Notes: a model not told the origin generated them from the letters alone. A DNA stretch of 64,000 nt from Desulfobacula sp. (GCF_014237455.1 NZ_JABZFL010000015.1:4403-68402); one strand, 5' to 3'. Counted from the first letter of the stretch, positions 43,670 to 48,719 are shown. Translations and numbers: made by a program.

Positions 43670-44074
43670 ATGGTACCTGACAACACCTCAATAATAAGGG
43701 CAAGGGATGTGATGCGTAAGGGAATCATTACCATTGACGGCATGGCCACGGCCAAAGAGGCGGCCGCTAAAATGCGGGCTGAAAAAGTTTCCTGTCTTAT
43801 CGTCAAAAGAAGGGATAATGATGATGCCTGGGGCATAGTAGTTGTTCAGGATTTTCTTAAAGGGGTGATAATACCGGGCCGCTCTCCGGAAAATGTACAT
43901 GTCTATGAAATCATGACAAAGCCTGTTATCACTGTACCGGCTGACATGGACATCCGCTATGTTGCCCGCCTGATTAACCGGGCCGGCATACGAAGAGCTT
44001 CCGTCGAAGATGGAGGGGAGCTTATCGGAATGATTTCTCTTTCTTCGTTGATTCTCGATAATGAGCTTTTTTAG
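43670..44074 (+). CDS. CBS-domain protein
   Basis: Tandem CBS pair 'ARDVMRKGIITID'...'VYEIMTKPVITV'. Confidence 0.88.
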   Translation: MVPDNTSIIRARDVMRKGIITIDGMATAKEAAAKMRAEKVSCLIVKRRDNDDAWGIVVVQDFLKGVIIPGRSPENVHVYEIMTKPVITVPADMDIRYVARLINRAGIRRASVEDGGELIGMISLSSLILDNELF

Positions 44075-44179
44075 TGCTAAGTTTTTATTTTTTCCCCTTG
44101 ATATTTTTTCAAATTATCAAGGCAATTAGACGTGATAATAAATGGTTCTGTGTAAATATGATGAACCCAAAGCATTTTT

Positions 44180-44608
44180 TTGTTTAAAAAAAAGGTTTTA
44201 CGAATGGAAACAGAAGATGGCAGAAGAATTATTAGTGGTTTTTACTCCACCAAAGAAGAAAGAAAAGCTTGCTTAAGTTTGGAGCAATGGAGTAAATGGA
44301 AGCAATTGGAAAAAACCATTTCTGTACGAGATACAGGAACCAAGGCAATTGTGCACGGGCGCAATCGGAACCAACATAGTATAGTTGGAACACCCGGAGA
44401 GATAAATCCTTGGGGACATTCTGAAGGAACGATTGGCAATACCATTGATTATTGTGTTCAGCTTGGTATTTTTACAAAAGATCAAATAAAAATTCTTGCT
44501 GGAACAAAAATGAATAAAATCAATTCACATCTTCGCAGTATGGAAAAAAAAGGTGAGTATGTGGCAATTAAAAATTTTGATGGAATTATATCTTTTAAAA
44601 ATAAGTAA
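44180..44608 (+). CDS. Hypothetical protein, probable first cassette ORF (ends at attC1)
   Basis: AT-rich ORF whose stop abuts an attC-like hairpin; start uncertain (TTG 44180 or ATG 44204). Confidence 0.5.
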   Translation: MFKKKVLRMETEDGRRIISGFYSTKEERKACLSLEQWSKWKQLEKTISVRDTGTKAIVHGRNRNQHSIVGTPGEINPWGHSEGTIGNTIDYCVQLGIFTKDQIKILAGTKMNKINSHLRSMEKKGEYVAIKNFDGIISFKNK

Positions 44609-44681
44609 ACACAGAAGGCAAATTAACTCGGATGCAAATTCCGTTGCGCTCCATTTGCACCGGTTATTTGCAGCGTTAGCT
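44605..44681 (+). repeat. attC-like site 1 (R'' degenerate)
   Basis: GCAAAT[T]AAC[T]CGG[A]TGCAAAT ... ATTTGCACCGGTTATTTGC imperfect palindrome with three unpaired bases, ending in core GTTAGCT (44675-44681). Confidence 0.75.
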
Positions 44682-44718
44682 TGTCCAGTTCTCAGCTGGA
44701 TAAAAGGAGAAAGAACAA

Positions 44719-45150
44719 ATGGATAGTTTTGGTATAATTTTAATTGTTGCTGTTATTATTGGTATCATTCCTGCCTTTATTGCATCAAGTAAAGGGAGAG
44801 ATTTTGTTCTTTGGTGGATTTATGGCACATCATTGTTTGTCTTTGCTATGATTCATGCAATTGTATTAAAACCAAACGAAGAACAACTAATTAGAGAAGG
44901 AAAGAAACATTGTCCCTATTGTGATGAATTGATAAAGCCCAAAGCAACTGTATGTCGATACTGTAGCAGAGAGCTACCATCAGATCAGGAAGAATTGCCA
45001 GTATCAACTAAAGAAACAAATAAAGAAACAAAATTTTGTCATAATTGTTCAAATAATAGATACCATGGCTTTTCGGGGTATAAATGTAAATTAACTAAAA
45101 ACAAAACAGATACTTTTGAAACTTGTGACAATTGGAGTCAAAAAAGTTGA
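44719..45150 (+). CDS. Membrane protein with zinc-ribbon and second Cys cluster (cassette gene)
   Basis: Two TM helices, CPYC-x10-CRYC, then CHNC...C...C; RBS AAGGAG. Confidence 0.75.
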   Translation: MDSFGIILIVAVIIGIIPAFIASSKGRDFVLWWIYGTSLFVFAMIHAIVLKPNEEQLIREGKKHCPYCDELIKPKATVCRYCSRELPSDQEELPVSTKETNKETKFCHNCSNNRYHGFSGYKCKLTKNKTDTFETCDNWSQKS

Positions 45151-45908
45151 ATGAATTAATACGGGGATTTTTTTATCACTACACTTCAATCGAAAAACTT
45201 ACATTAATATTAAACAGTCAAAATATTCGATTCACCAGAGCTGATTTAGTTAATGATTTAGAGGAAATAAATATTATCGATAAACCTGAGATAAAAAAAT
45301 CTGCCTTTATTTCATGCTGGACAAGCCAAAATAATGAATCAATACCGATGTGGAATTTATATGGTGGTATATCAAAAGGAGTTAGAATAAAGCTGAGATA
45401 TCCGATTTTTGAAGGTGCATCTGTTGCATACAATGTTGAGAATCACCACTGCAACATTATGAATTTAAAAAATATCAGCAATTTTATAAAAAGAGATGGG
45501 GATCATGAATGGGTAAAGTATCTATTCGGACCAATTAAAGTAAATTATGCAAAAAATGTTGCTGTTTATGTAATAGGAAATAATAATTCTTTAATTGTAG
45601 AAAAAATTGGAACTCAAAAACTAGAACATTGGAAATTCGAAAATGAATCCCGTTTTTTAGCTCTGGCAAATCATGAATGGAATAGCAGTACAAAACAATT
45701 TGAACTTAAGCAGGAACCATATTATTCAAAGACTAAAGATAACTATTTTGATATCAGAATAGACAAAAATATATTCAATAAAATGGAAGTTACTCTTGGC
45801 CCAAGTTGTCAATATCCTGAGCAAATTATTGTTGAAAGTCTAATTGAAAAATTTACAACAAATGGAAAAGTGAAACTAAGCGAACTTAAAGAAAAAATTA
45901 GATTATAA
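45132..45908 (+). CDS. DUF2971-like protein (cassette gene)
   Basis: 'YHYTS...L', 'NDLEE', 'SCWT....ESIPMWNLYG...GVRI', 'KLEHWKFENESR'; start uncertain (TTG 45132 or 45147, coupled to the upstream stop). Confidence 0.65.
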   Translation: MESKKLNELIRGFFYHYTSIEKLTLILNSQNIRFTRADLVNDLEEINIIDKPEIKKSAFISCWTSQNNESIPMWNLYGGISKGVRIKLRYPIFEGASVAYNVENHHCNIMNLKNISNFIKRDGDHEWVKYLFGPIKVNYAKNVAVYVIGNNNSLIVEKIGTQKLEHWKFENESRFLALANHEWNSSTKQFELKQEPYYSKTKDNYFDIRIDKNIFNKMEVTLGPSCQYPEQIIVESLIEKFTTNGKVKLSELKEKIRL

Positions 45909-45915
45909 AAAGCTA

Positions 45916-47881
45916 ATCGGGTAGCCGGGGGTTTTAATCCCCCAGCCCCCACAACACCCTGCATGCGGGTCCGCACAGGGCGTTTCATCAAGATTACCGG
46001 GCTGTGGCCGGGTAATGTATTTTCACCCACTGTTCTTTGACAGATATTAACCCTTGTTCAGATAGCCATTTGTTTGTCATACCGGCCTGTGTTGCCATGG
46101 TTCTGGACAGATGCCATGGCCCTCTTCGGCTGAGGGATGTCATGATTGCCTCTCTTTTGTAGGTGCCTAATTTGAGAAGATTTCGGACTTTGGTACGGGT
46201 ATACCGCCATTGTTTCCAGTAGCACATCCGTGTCCGGCGGCGAAGCCATTCGTCTATTCCCGGAATTGGTCGGTAGTATTCCGATATCCCGTAATAGTTC
46301 ATCCAACCCCGGATATATTCCGCTAACTTCTTGTATCGGTGCTCCATAGAGACAAACCAGCTCCTTCCGGTAAACAGGCGTAACCGCCGCTTAAATTCCA
46401 GAAAGGATTTATCACTCCATCTGATTTTGCCATTTACAAATACAAAACCAAGAAAACCGCATTCTTCCACTGGTGCCACCTTGCTCTTCTTCTCGTTGAC
46501 TTTGAGTTGAAGCTTTAGCTCAAGGAACCGACGTATACTTGCCATCACCCGTTTGCCGGCACTCAGGCTTTTCACCATAATGATGAAATCATCTGCATAC
46601 CGGACAAAATGGTGGCCTCGTTTTTCCAGTTCCTTGTCAAGGTCATCAAGAAGGATATTAGCGAGCAAAGGTGAAAGTGGGCCTCCCTGGGGAACACCCG
46701 TAGGAGTTGCCTGAAGGCGGCCTTTGACCACAACACCGGCCCTGAGATATTTACCGATAAGCTTCAGTACTCGCTTATCTTGTATCTGGCGGGATACTCT
46801 ATTCATCAAGACATCGTGATTAACTTTATCGAAAAATTTCGACAAATCAGTATCAACGGCCACTTTGTAGCCCTGCCCTATGAATTGTTTTACCTGCCGG
46901 ACACCATCATGGGCCGATCTGCCAGGCCTGAAACCGCAACTTGATTCCGAAAACAAGGGATCAAATATTAACCCCATAACCTGGGCAATGGCTTGTTGGA
47001 TCGTTCTATCCAGCACGGTTGGGATACCCAGGGGACGTTTACTTCCATCCGGTTTTGGTATTTCAACCCTTAGAACAGGAGAAGGGATATATGTCCCTTC
47101 AAAAAGGTCTGAACGTATCTTAGGCCATAACTCACGAAAGGCGTCCGGAAATTGCTCAACGGTTACACCGTCGATTCCAGGGGCACCCTTGTTGGCCCGC
47201 ACCTGTTTCCAGGCACGACGTATATTCTCTGCCGAAAGAATACGTTCCAGTAGATGATTCTTTGAAAAAGGTACTTCCACAGCGCGCTTGTAAATTACTC
47301 CTCCATTCGGATTCACGGTATATACAAAGCTCATGGATACCTCCTTTTCGTTTGATGTTCTGTCCTTCACCCTGTCCGGGGCATTACTCCCGGCGTTTGG
47401 CTACTATGACGTCTGCTGACTTCTGCTTCATCACTAATCAGGTTACCCTGACCAGCGCAATGAAACTTCTTTTGCAGGTGTTGCCCATTGTTCGTGTCTC
47501 ATCACCGTCGGCAACAGCCGGTGATGCCTGGACCTTGGTTTCCCGGTATGGTCCGAGCCGGGAGTTGTTGCAAAAGATGCTCAATGCATGCAAGGCAGAT
47601 CTCCCCGGATAAGAGCGTGAACTGTCACTACACAACCGCAGCATTTACCCTGTCTCTTGAATCCTGGGCTTTGTCATGTTGTGCTGACTTACCCGGAGAC
47701 CAGGCCTTATATGCTGTTTCTGTTCGTCGGCTCATAGTTTTGCACTCCAACTTCCTTCGGACGGTTCCTCACAGTTCCGCCCTTGTTTTCGGCTAATACT
47801 TGTGTTAACAAAAACATATGCTAACAGGACTCACGTATAGGGGACTTGCACCCCATAAGTTCACGCCCATGCCGGGCGTAC
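45916..47881 (-). mobile_element. Group II intron, class IIC-attC, inserted in the bottom strand of attC2
   Basis: 5' end GTACGCCCGGCATGGGCG (G at 47881); domain V with CGC triad at 45953-45984; domain VI ending ACCCGAT at 45916; flanks rejoin into an attC. Confidence 0.9.
45994..47370 (-). CDS. ltrA: Group II intron reverse transcriptase/maturase (no endonuclease domain)
   Basis: RT0 'NKGAPGIDG', 'RPLGIPTVLDR', 'GVPQGGPLSPLLANI', 'YADD', X domain 'GWMNYY'. Confidence 0.95.
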   Translation of the reverse strand: MKDRTSNEKEVSMSFVYTVNPNGGVIYKRAVEVPFSKNHLLERILSAENIRRAWKQVRANKGAPGIDGVTVEQFPDAFRELWPKIRSDLFEGTYIPSPVLRVEIPKPDGSKRPLGIPTVLDRTIQQAIAQVMGLIFDPLFSESSCGFRPGRSAHDGVRQVKQFIGQGYKVAVDTDLSKFFDKVNHDVLMNRVSRQIQDKRVLKLIGKYLRAGVVVKGRLQATPTGVPQGGPLSPLLANILLDDLDKELEKRGHHFVRYADDFIIMVKSLSAGKRVMASIRRFLELKLQLKVNEKKSKVAPVEECGFLGFVFVNGKIRWSDKSFLEFKRRLRLFTGRSWFVSMEHRYKKLAEYIRGWMNYYGISEYYRPIPGIDEWLRRRTRMCYWKQWRYTRTKVRNLLKLGTYKREAIMTSLSRRGPWHLSRTMATQAGMTNKWLSEQGLISVKEQWVKIHYPATAR

Positions 47882-47937
47882 GCCAACTGTTCCACTGGAC
47901 CCGCAAACAGCGCGGGCCAGTGAACGCCACGTTAGAA
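47882..47937 (+). repeat. attC site 2, right part (left part AGCTA at 45911-45915)
   Basis: GTTC[C]ACTGG[A]CCCGC / GCGGGCCAGTGAAC stem gives extrahelical G and T on the bottom strand; core GTTAGAA at 47931-47937. Confidence 0.85.
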
Positions 47938-48029
47938 AAAAATAAAATCGTGAATCAATGCGCAGTGGGTTGGAAAAAGTCGTTTGGGTTACTGAATATT
48001 AACATATTGCAAAAGTACAAAGAGGTAGC

Positions 48030-48719
48030 ATGAAAACAATTGGTCTTTTGGGTGGAATGAGTTGGGAAAGCACGGTGAGTTATTATCGAGCGATAAACGA
48101 GGGGGTAAAAAATGCTCTTGGCGGTTTGCACTCCGCCAGGATCGTATTGTACAGTGTTGACTTTGACCCTATTGAGAAGCTGCAGCGAAAAGGCGATTGG
48201 GAAGGTACAGCTGAAATACTTTCAGAAGCAGCCTTGAGCGTTCAGTCTGCCGGTGCTGATTTTTTGGTTATCTGCACAAACACTATGCATAAGGTTGCTC
48301 CCCAGATAGAGGATACAATTGATATACCCTTGCTGCATATTGCTGATGCGACAGCCGAATCGCTTGTGCACAACGGTATAAAAAAAGTGGGCCTGCTGGG
48401 TACAGCGTTTACAATGGAGCAAGATTTTTACAAAGGTCGGTTGATTCAGAAATACGGACTCACTGTTTTGGTGCCCAATAAAGAAGACAGAAAGGCTGTC
48501 CACAAAATAATTTTTCAAGAGCTTTGTCTGGGGAAAATAAGAATCGATTCCAAGGCAACATATCTTCATATCATTGATTCCCTGGCTGACCAGGGAGCCG
48601 AAGCAGTGATTCTCGGCTGTACTGAAATAGGGATGCTTGTGAACCAGAGCGATACCACTGTAAAGCTGTTTGATACCACTGCTGTTCATGCAGAAAAGGC
48701 AGTCGCATATGCAATATAA
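48030..48719 (+). CDS. Aspartate/glutamate racemase family protein (YgeA/RacX-like)
   Basis: 'GLLGGMSWEST', catalytic 'CTNTMH' and 'GCTEI'. Confidence 0.92.
   Translation: MKTIGLLGGMSWESTVSYYRAINEGVKNALGGLHSARIVLYSVDFDPIEKLQRKGDWEGTAEILSEAALSVQSAGADFLVICTNTMHKVAPQIEDTIDIPLLHIADATAESLVHNGIKKVGLLGTAFTMEQDFYKGRLIQKYGLTVLVPNKEDRKAVHKIIFQELCLGKIRIDSKATYLHIIDSLADQGAEAVILGCTEIGMLVNQSDTTVKLFDTTAVHAEKAVAYAI

Follow-up and report, generated by a model that had tools for sequence, protein, structure and literature searches.

Between a CBS-domain gene and a racemase gene of the 64,000-nucleotide stretch of DNA analysed here (the window), positions 44076-48002 most probably constitute an integron fragment without an integrase gene, composed of an attI-like site and two cassettes and inserted at this junction in this lineage (probability about 0.85). 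The locus belongs to a kind already described, the chromosomal integrase-less cassette cluster with a group IIC-attC intron in an attC site, of which it is a clean, well-bounded example. What is new is the head of the array, a conserved attI-like site of ~60 nt, for which one relative has an adjacent intI and at least ten others have none. The features of the insert and its flanks are as follows.

43670-44074, + strand: CBS-domain gene (Pfam CBS), left flank; last gene of a conserved operon, outside the element
44086-44145, + strand: attI-like site, ...TTGATA-N13-TATCAAGG-N10-TGATAATAAATGG; crossover after G44145
44146-44675, + strand: cassette 0 (ORF-A and attC1)
44204-44608, + strand: ORF-A, 134 aa, no known family
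44609-44681, + strand: attC1; R' GTTAGCT at 44675-44681, R'' ACAGAAG abutting the stem
44676-47931, + strand: cassette 1 (ORF-B, ORF-C, intron, attC2); starts TTAGCT, ends ...AGCTA[intron]GC...G
44719-45150, + strand: ORF-B, 143 aa; hydrophobic, putative membrane N-terminus (as read from the sequence) and zinc ribbon
45132-45908, + strand: ORF-C, 258 aa, DUF2971-type, candidate anti-phage gene
45911-45915, + strand: left five bases of the attC2 R'' (AGCTA, as read), severed from the rest by the intron
45916-47881, - strand: 1966-nt group II intron (IIC-attC type), 5'-GUACG...CCCGAU-3', opposite in sense to the cassettes
45994-47370, - strand: intron-encoded reverse transcriptase/maturase, RVT_1 and GIIM only (TIGR04416, 400 bits)
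47882-47937, + strand: remainder of attC2, in order GC, CAACT, GTT[C]CACTGG[A]CCCGC, loop, GCGGGCCAGTGAAC, GCCAC, GTTAGAA
47932-48002, + strand: 71-nt stretch, either old intergenic DNA or the first part of a truncated third cassette
48030-48719, + strand: racemase (aspartate/glutamate; Asp_Glu_race, TIGR00035), right flank, core gene

The limits of this 3.9-kb insert are set by comparison with relatives. Two genomes that keep the junction of the CBS and racemase genes, G014 and G041, are devoid of 44076-48002; instead, their racemase gene begins about 50 nt after the CBS gene (spacers of 47-55 nt). Homology with G014 and other genomes stops 1 nt past the CBS stop codon. The earlier note had drawn the cluster from 44180 to 48719: its array is retained, and both ends move. 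The array begins at G44145/TT, upstream of ORF-A, and the racemase lies outside it, as the gene abuts the CBS gene in G014 and G041, which both lack the insert. For the same reason we rejected the racemase as a last cassette without attC; no attC is found 3' of it, as had been remarked. The G+C content of the cassettes is 30-35%, versus 41% for the genome. The 71-nt stretch at the right edge has no homology to the intergenic DNA of G014 and G041 and no fold as a single strand. No convincing terminal repeats, direct or inverted, were found for the 3.9-kb block, and no empty allele, reconstructed by joining the left flank to the right flank, was found across the genus. This genus-wide search also brought up the attI-like repeat. 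The preferred reading does not account for the insertion of a block that includes an attI-like site.

The attI-like site is a conserved element of ~60-70 nt with three TGATAA-type motifs and the end ATGG/TT. At least 11 genomes of the genus, as well as MAGs of Desulfobacula and Desulfamplus, contain copies 81-89% identical to it, and the right flanks of these copies diverge exactly after G/TT. From genome to genome, the site carries different cassettes, several of them with matching R'' boxes. In G053, a divergent integron integrase (TIGR02249, 441 bits) starts 81 nt away from the site, and the junction with the first cassette is at G/TT, with an exact chain GTTACATT...AATGTAAC. In the window and in at least ten other genomes, it is followed by cassettes with no intI within 3 kb, and in these at least ten intI-free copies the similarity begins at about the same left boundary, beside unrelated core genes. 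That the putative site acts as an attI is suggested by G053, the one genome in which it is seen beside intI. An unusual attC was also considered and rejected: no attC-type hairpin was found at the site, which lacks a closing stem and contains an inverted repeat of just 6 bp. A 15-mer scan with the end of the site over the genomes of all species returned mostly chance matches in AT-rich genomes, and only the Desulfobacula and Desulfamplus matches are informative.

Cassette 0 encodes ORF-A, for which no match was obtained in Pfam, NCBIfam or PADLOC. Homologues 67-84% identical occur in metagenomes, one of them at most ~1 kb from an integrase identified by its SAM_4 and Phage_integrase domains, in a run of small co-oriented ORFs. 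On metagenome contig L045, a homologous cassette has the same start, directly after a canonical attC (G/TTATGTGTAAATAT versus G/TTCTGTGTAAATAT), and ends with the R'' ACACATAAC. The site that closes cassette 0, attC1, was scored with two covariance models trained on attC sites of other genomes, attC1 being excluded; it reached 44.6 bits with R1 (E 5e-7) and 25.3 bits with R2 (E 2e-4, the top match of the window). Sites in 8 genomes share 86-98% identity with it, among them those of the intI-linked array of G009 and of contig C87 of its own genome. This family fills intI-linked arrays across the genus as well as the C87 array, and its arrays are co-oriented and start at the attI of an intI. As single-stranded DNA, attC1 folds better than shuffled sequences (z = -2.9), with extrahelical bases on the R''/L'' arm (GCAAAT[T]AAC[T]CGG[A]TGCAAAT), and its R' fits GTTRRRY with the crossover after G. 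Its R'', on the other hand, is degenerate, as had been proposed: where the family has xxxTAAC, 3 nt and GCAAAT, the window has ACAGAAG and GCAAAT, so that 3 nt are lost at the R''/spacer. A canonical RYYYAAC at the proper distance is absent; one reads either ACAGAAG without spacer or AACACAG in the canonical slot. The box looks like a damaged canonical one, with ACAGAAC expected.

Cassette 1 has the boundaries claimed for it, G44675/TTAGCT and G47931/TTAGAA. The zinc-ribbon Pfam matches of ORF-B are weak, all under the gathering score. ORF-C matches the PADLOC model PDC-S31 (E 5e-8) and DUF2971 (E 0.02). A homologue 60% identical to it is found in a cassette with its own attC in the intI-linked integron L042, with a perfect chain, and further homologues adjoin restriction-modification and Abi genes. 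The description of the ORFs as promoter-poor is borne out by 5 sigma-70-like sites versus 10.3 +/- 3.0 in shuffles.

The second site, attC2, is harder to score. With a general model, R3, it obtains 14.0 bits, the best match of the window (E 0.1 over 64 kb, 0.009 over 5.4 kb), and genome-wide this score is not significant (14 bits, roughly E 5). The genus-specific models give 5 bits (R1) and nothing at E<=10 (R2), which says little, since the CAAAT...ATTTG family dominates both. The three models were all built for this analysis, with a shortened calibration. The earlier note would have abandoned its reading had no attC covariance model scored either site; attC1 is scored by two models from other genomes (44.6 and 25.3 bits), attC2 weakly (14 bits). 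Two relatives of attC2, in G015 (L023:9304-9367) and G014 (L025:10628-10683), score 13-15 bits, like attC2 itself. Its single-stranded hairpin folds better than shuffles (z = -3.7), and its bulge geometry agrees at 9/9 points with a scheme common to 14 independent attC sites, including that of blaIMP-4; the extrahelical bases are ~6 bp apart, as in the blaIMP-4 attC (TAT[G]CAATCG). In a scan for strict bulge geometry attC2 is the only site within the window, and the genome holds 9 sites versus 3-6 in shuffles, so that geometry alone is no proof of attC2. A simpler scanner for AAC...GTT hairpins was too noisy and was not used as evidence. Both attC-type palindromes are in place, with all bulged bases on the 5' (R''/L'') arm.

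The ends of the cassettes mirror their starts. The R' of attC2, GTTAGAA (47931-47937), fits GTTRRRY except for its last base, which is not Y. Once the intron (45916-47881) is removed, the top strand reads AGCTA/GC, which matches the complement of GTTAGCT (AGCTAAC) at 6/7 positions and at 4/4 of the variable ones, as expected from the complementarity already pointed out. In both cassettes, the R'' agrees with the cassette's own start at 4/4 variable positions, a level reached by 1/73 non-consecutive pairs in the G009 array. As in attC1, no canonical RYYYAAC is present in attC2: its R'' is AGCTAGC, split by the intron, with AGC for AAC, and looks like a damaged box for which AGCTAAC is expected. 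Identification of attC2 as an attC is supported by its geometry, the R'/R'' complementarity, the relatives elsewhere and an attC-specific intron at the canonical position, and its model score is weak. Overall, the cassettes bear the marks of integron-integrase recombination: TT after G, an attC hairpin at the end and an R'' mirroring their own start.

The intron has the ribozyme domains D1-D4 and D5/D6 (Rfam RF02001, RF01998, RF00029), and no endonuclease domain was detected in its protein by Pfam search. This protein is 54.7% identical to that of Kl.pn.I3, the closest in the plasmid collection apart from one uncharacterised record at 62.4%. The intron ends are nearly identical to those of Kl.pn.I3, which resides in the blaIMP-4 attC of pIMP-HZ1, and the 3' boundary was set by comparison with it. 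On the bottom strand, the insertion reads ...GAACAGTTGGC/intron/TAGCTTTTT, at the same position as in Kl.pn.I3 (...GCTTTGT/intron/TAGAAAT). The intron shares with Kl.pn.I3 its orientation and its point of insertion, which follows the second base of R'' on the bottom strand, and an insertion rule for IIC-attC introns is published (PMC3001079, PMC7923331). By retrohoming, an intron of the group IIC-attC type entered attC2 on its bottom strand, within R'' and antisense to the cassette genes, as its lineage does. Copies 89-90% identical adjoin attC hairpins in G014 and G010, and a fragment lies in an intI-linked array of the same genome, on contig C96. The target TGGC/T departs from the consensus TTGT/T, of which only the T at +1 is kept; the 5' exons of the sister copies end in TTGG/ and TGGT/. 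A loop of D1 differs among the three 90%-identical copies (ACCA, GCCA, AUCA) and could pair with TGGY, and this variable loop may explain the departure from the consensus. Its assignment as exon-binding site 1 was tried, and the register fails to fit all three copies.

Genome-wide, TIGR02249 detects integron integrases above cut-off on contigs C96 and C5 only, and none on the 95-kb contig that holds the window (C48). None of the 24 tyrosine-recombinase hits of the genome lies on C48, in line with the earlier note's remark that the window has no intI. The attI regions of the C96 and C5 integrases differ from the attI-like site. An intI pseudogene with in-frame stops on C85 indicates that integrase decay does happen in this genome.

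A CALIN is reportedly a cluster of attC sites lacking an integron integrase, as defined with IntegronFinder by Cury and colleagues in 2016. This label, put forward in the earlier note, is supported. Its working definition asks for two or more attC sites in one orientation, under 4 kb from each other, and for no integron integrase in the vicinity; here attC1 and attC2 are both on the + strand, 3.2 kb apart with the intron included, the co-oriented ORFs are promoter-poor, and no intI is present within 4 kb or on the 95-kb contig, while integrases exist elsewhere in the genome. What sets the present array apart is that both R'' boxes are damaged and that it keeps an attI-like head, which the CALIN definition neither requires nor detects. 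The term is in use in PMC7923331. The locus does not qualify as a complete integron, with intI adjacent and divergent to attI, since no intI is on the contig.

The intron resembles the group IIC-attC introns S.ma.I2 of Serratia marcescens and Kl.pn.I3 of the blaIMP-4 cassette of pIMP-HZ1 in its RT/maturase without detected endonuclease, its ends GUACG...CCCGAU, the T that opens the 3' exon and its placement on the attC bottom strand after the second R'' base, between gene and attC and antisense to the cassette. It differs from both in the 5' exon end, TGGC instead of TTGT, and from Kl.pn.I3 in its protein (only 54.7% identity) and its setting, a sulfate-reducer-type chromosome rather than a plasmid-borne class 1 integron. 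Family-like attC sites, such as the VCR repeats of the Vibrio superintegron, are a feature of sedentary chromosomal integrons. Similarly, attC1 comes from a sequence family that recurs within arrays and throughout the genus; however, here there are two cassettes only, away from any integrase, with attC sites from two families. Cassettes can also insert at non-integron genomic sites (secondary or 'attG' sites). The present cassettes likewise lie outside an integron platform, with the crossover G/TT, but the recipient is not a minimal GTT: it is a conserved element of ~60-70 nt with three TGATAA copies and a putative attI role beside intI in one genome.

Other explanations of the locus have to be weighed. 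The array could still be active, the C96 and C5 integrases excising and reinserting its cassettes in trans, so that the locus would be a working satellite of the genome's integrons. The genome does hold two intact intI genes, attC1 is of the same family as the C87 sites, GTT is intact in each R' box, and each hairpin folds with its bulges on the correct arm. However, the attC1 R'' is 3 nt short and without AAC, the attC2 R'' is split by the intron and has AGC, and the attI regions of the resident integrases are unrelated, all of which makes present activity unlikely. Alternatively, a complete integron may have decayed in place, through later deletion of an intI once located between the CBS gene and the attI-like site. 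The G053 site adjoining a divergent intI and the pseudogene on C85 would fit such a history. Against it, only 11 nt separate the end of shared flank homology from the site, and 24 nt from the TTGATA motif; neither the CBS stop codon nor the homology to G014 is disrupted, and G014 and G041 are without any remnant. Moreover, the site occurs without intI in at least ten other genomes, where the similarity has about the same left boundary beside unrelated core genes, a misfit with independent random deletions. We therefore consider decay in place quite improbable.

Finally, the locus could be unrelated to integrons: a small genomic islet of the ordinary sort, with terminators or REP-like repeats as its hairpins and a IIC intron that homed to a terminator. 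Terminator hairpins are common targets of IIC introns (PMC7923331), attC2 is weak with the general model and both R'' boxes are non-canonical. But both hairpins lack a T-run after them, whichever strand is read, and neither was called as a terminator-like site; the attC1 family forms co-oriented arrays starting at the attI of intI, the R'/R'' chains hold in both cassettes, the ORF-A cassette boundary is identical in the unrelated contig L045, and the closest characterised relative of the intron is attC-specific. This explanation is already largely refuted and retains a very small probability.

For the preferred reading, an integrase-less fragment inserted between the CBS and racemase genes, the suggestion of a decaying array fits, as the R'' boxes of both attC sites are damaged. 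From this damage (attC1 having lost 3 nt at the R''/spacer, attC2 having its R'' split by 2 kb of intron and AGC for AAC), we infer that the array is probably frozen now; neither attC would easily form the paired R box bound by the integrase. Mobilisation of the array in trans, also raised before, is possible in principle given the two intI genes on other contigs: the C96 and C5 integrases could still act on the sites, but their own attI regions are different. The cassette genes lack an upstream promoter-like site of their own and would owe their transcription to read-through from the CBS operon; the antisense intron now lies between this operon and the racemase.

For annotation, the three ORFs are to be regarded as mobile cassette genes, one of them a candidate anti-phage gene, and the racemase as outside the cluster; the intron breaks what was probably an operon junction. 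The locus also shows how such clusters become fixed, one R'' being lost by a 3-nt deletion and the other by an intron and a point change. A wider import may lie in the conserved attI-like site without integrase in many related genomes. In a dozen or more genomes of the genus, and in neighbouring genera as well, the element lies next to unrelated core genes; only one of these genomes has intI beside it. Tentatively, it could be a dispersed cassette docking site needing no adjacent integrase gene, a possibility that we hold to be less likely than its opposite. Should these sites be used by integrases that are encoded elsewhere or arrive with mobile elements, cassette capture in these bacteria would be spread over many chromosomal 'satellite attI' sites rather than one platform. 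If the attI-like site works in recombination, it would offer a testable route to integrase-less cassette clusters.

The integrase-less block of cassettes lies between a CBS-domain gene and a gene for an aspartate/glutamate racemase, with the following features in the window.

43670-44074, + strand: CBS-domain gene
44086-44145, + strand: attI-like element, the 60 nt left of the cassette 0 boundary
44204-44608, + strand: ORF-A, in cassette 0 (44146-44675)
44609-44681, + strand: attC1, a 73-nt imperfect palindrome
44719-45150, + strand: ORF-B, zinc ribbon, in cassette 1 (44676-47931)
45132-45908, + strand: ORF-C
47881 to 45916, - strand: group II intron, Rfam domains D1-D4 and D5/D6
47882-47937, + strand: attC2, the second palindrome
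47932-48002: 71-nt stretch before the racemase gene
48030-48719, + strand: aspartate/glutamate racemase gene

As judged from comparison with relatives, the block is an insertion between the CBS gene and the racemase gene. In G014, a genome of the same genus, the CBS gene is followed after about 55 nt by the racemase gene, and in G041 the gap is 47 nt; the block is absent from this position in all 51 genomes of the genus. Left homology stops 1 nt past the CBS stop codon and restarts at 48003. Therefore, the racemase, which the earlier note had counted in the cluster, is flanking core DNA and no cassette, and the upper coordinate of the cluster had been set too high. The G+C content of the cassette DNA is 30-35%, versus 41% for the genome.

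The left end of cassette 0 was located with homologues of ORF-A, which are 67-84% identical in metagenomes. In metagenome contig L045, the homologous cassette opens with G|TTATGTGTAAATAT right after a canonical attC and closes with the R'' box ACACATAAC; the counterparts in the window are G44145|TTCTGTGTAAATAT and CACAGAA(G). This places the cassette boundary at 44145|44146. Another ORF-A homologue heads a series of small ORFs sharing one orientation, and some 1 kb away is an integrase recognised by its SAM_4 and Phage_integrase domains. Neither ORF-A nor ORF-B matches a family at curated cut-offs. Across contigs, the ORF-A cassette keeps a constant R'' (ACACATAAC / ACACAGAA-) and carries three unrelated attC bodies (window 44608-44620; L044:1360-1460; L045:2210-2290; L046:1145-1215). 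The switch point is R'', the exact place where IIC-attC introns insert. A chimeric attC has been described at Kl.pn.I3, a group IIC intron (PMC5027574), and the R''-located switch of attC bodies fits the proposed intron-mediated exchange of attC sites.

attC1 belongs to a family of sites found in arrays. Its sequence is found again in eight genomes with 86-98% identity, where the copies have a canonical R'' (GCCTAAC, ACCTAAC and others), a 3-nt spacer and varying R' tails. In G009, the copy lies 8.3 kb inside an array of at least nine co-oriented sites that begins at the attI of an intI, and the own genome has family members on contig C87, within a series of nine or more sites that share one orientation. 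We scored the sites with three home-made covariance models of short calibration. R1, trained on ten sites from other loci, gives attC1 44.6 bits (E 5e-7 over 327 kb). R2, built from 15 short sites with attC1-family members and the window left out, gives 25.3 bits (E 2e-4), the top match in the window. At the R''/spacer junction, attC1 has ACAGAAG|GCAAAT in place of the ACAGAAC-AAG-GCAAAT expected for the family; three bases are lost, among them the C of AAC, which bears out the degenerate R'' noticed earlier.

With the intron removed, the top strand of attC2 reads AGCTA|GC CAACT GTT[C]CACTGG[A]CCCGC AAACAGC GCGGGCCAGTGAAC GCCAC GTTAGAA. This obeys a scheme seen in 14 independent attC sites, among them the blaIMP-4 attC of plasmid pIMP-HZ1: on the 5' side a 7-nt R'', a 4-6-nt spacer, a 3-bp stem, one bulged base in the 5' arm and a 6-bp stem; then the apical part, the mirror of the 5' elements and GTT. 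The complementary ends claimed for cassette 1 are also found, as the R'' of attC2 (AGCTAGC) agrees with the complement of the attC1 R' (GTTAGCT) at all four variable positions and at 6 of 7 in total. Such a match is equalled by 1 of 73 non-consecutive pairs in the G009 array. In a strict geometry scan, attC2 is the sole site in the 64-kb window; the whole genome yields nine sites versus 3-6 in shuffles. Relatives of attC2 are found in two other genomes, in G015, where two co-oriented ORFs flank the site and an intI lies 20 kb away (13.4 bits with R3), and in G014, next to a 90% identical copy of the intron (15.2 bits).

Model scores for attC2 itself are low: of the genus-specific models, R1 gives 5 bits and R2 nothing. 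R3, for which the 14 sites were aligned by hand, cut where the intron inserts and trimmed in their apical loops, gives 14.0 bits, which is the top match in the window (E 0.1; E 0.009 over 5.4 kb), with attC1 ranking second, and is not significant genome-wide. Real attC sites outside its training set score 12-30 bits. The identity of attC2 therefore stands on geometry, chain, position, relatives and intron together, and not on the model score.

The intron encodes a reverse transcriptase/maturase in which an endonuclease domain was not detected. At both ends (GUACGCCCGGCAUGGGCGUGAAC... and ...CCGGCUACCCGAU) the intron matches Kl.pn.I3, which splits the blaIMP-4 attC of pIMP-HZ1 (PMC5027574), and the two proteins share 54.7% identity. 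Both introns separate a gene from its attC, run antisense to that gene and follow base 2 of the R'' on the bottom strand (GT|TAGAA for Kl.pn.I3, GC|TAGCT for the window's intron), which is the rule for IIC-attC introns (PMC3001079; PMC7923331). The 5' exon ends in TGGC, not TTGT, and in TTGG and TGGT at the sister copies of loci L025 and L026. Among these three introns, about 90% identical, a loop of domain 1 also varies (AAACCAAGG at 47530-47550 on the - strand; TCGCCAAGG and AAATCAAGG in the counterparts). This loop is a candidate for exon-binding site 1 and may have drifted away from the pairing ACAA/TTGT seen in the plasmid introns.

The attI-like element abutting cassette 0 has no attC-like fold. 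Copies of it, with three TGATAA-type motifs and the end ATGG|TT, occur in at least 11 genomes of the genus as well as in MAGs of Desulfobacula and Desulfamplus; sequences to the right of the copies diverge from TT onward. In G053, the distance between the element and the start codon of a divergently oriented integron integrase (441 bits) is 81 nt, and the first cassette shows an exact chain (GTTACATT...AATGTAAC) and a hairpin. The other copies have unrelated core genes on their left and no integrase within 3 kb, and several are followed by a cassette whose attC opens with the expected R'' at one mismatch. From the single genome G053 and the junction pattern, we infer that 44086-44145 is an attI-type site. 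The G053-type integrase is confined to G053 and, with 68% identity, G060. In the site of one Desulfamplus MAG (L144:3553-3670), the TTATCAGG/CCTGATAA motif is present five or six times, versus three.

As the earlier note had stated for the window, its contig carries no intI; both integron integrases of the genome above the TIGR02249 cut-off lie on other contigs (C96:95501-96445, 461 bits; C5:2108-3043, 344 bits), and their attI regions differ from the attI-like element. The C96 integrase adjoins a textbook array: its first cassette ends in CGTATAAC, the mirror of attI GTTATACG, and its second in AGCGAAC, the mirror of GTTCGCT. This array contains a 140-nt piece of the window's intron (93% identity). 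Two fragments of the intron 3' end are found there (C96:99035-99185 and 99843-99860), the first of which touches an attC R' box (GGTTCA|ATCGGG), not the normal insertion point; this suggests a later rearrangement at the intron. Contig C87 has at least nine co-oriented attC sites over 45 kb (3733-48917, - strand) and no intI, and the C5 integrase faces the contig start with its cassette side (region C5:1-3043); hence, the two may be a single large integron broken by assembly. A reading frame resembling an integron integrase, split in two and interrupted by in-frame TAA and TGA (C85:23891-24705), is probably an intI pseudogene. Two further lone attC sites with a canonical R'' (AGCTAAC, CTGCAAC), attC bulge geometry and GTT lie away from any integrase at C97:45547-45606 and C69:209-335 (both - strand).

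ORF-C encodes a DUF2971-type protein (PADLOC PDC-S31, E 5e-8). One homologue, 60% identical, forms the fourth cassette in an intI-linked integron (metagenome contig L042) whose chain is perfect through four attC sites; a LexA gene directly adjoins intI there (L042:1384-3067). Further homologues adjoin restriction-modification and Abi genes. In G053, the first cassette after attI (L048/L060, contig C260) encodes a DUF2971-like protein with 32% identity to ORF-C over 78 aa. Such proteins seem to be frequent in the cassettes of this group. In G015, a module of three minus-strand genes (324, 302 and 295 aa) is present twice downstream of an intI (C1:3042259-3045016 and 3052688-3055445) and looks like a mobile unit inserted in the array.

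Overall, the block would be an acquired integron fragment, and its genes would be transcribed by read-through from the CBS operon, since promoter-like sites in the region are fewer than in shuffles, in agreement with the promoter-poor ORFs first described, and no terminator-like site is called at the CBS/cassette junction. Because both R boxes are impaired, the block would now recombine poorly.
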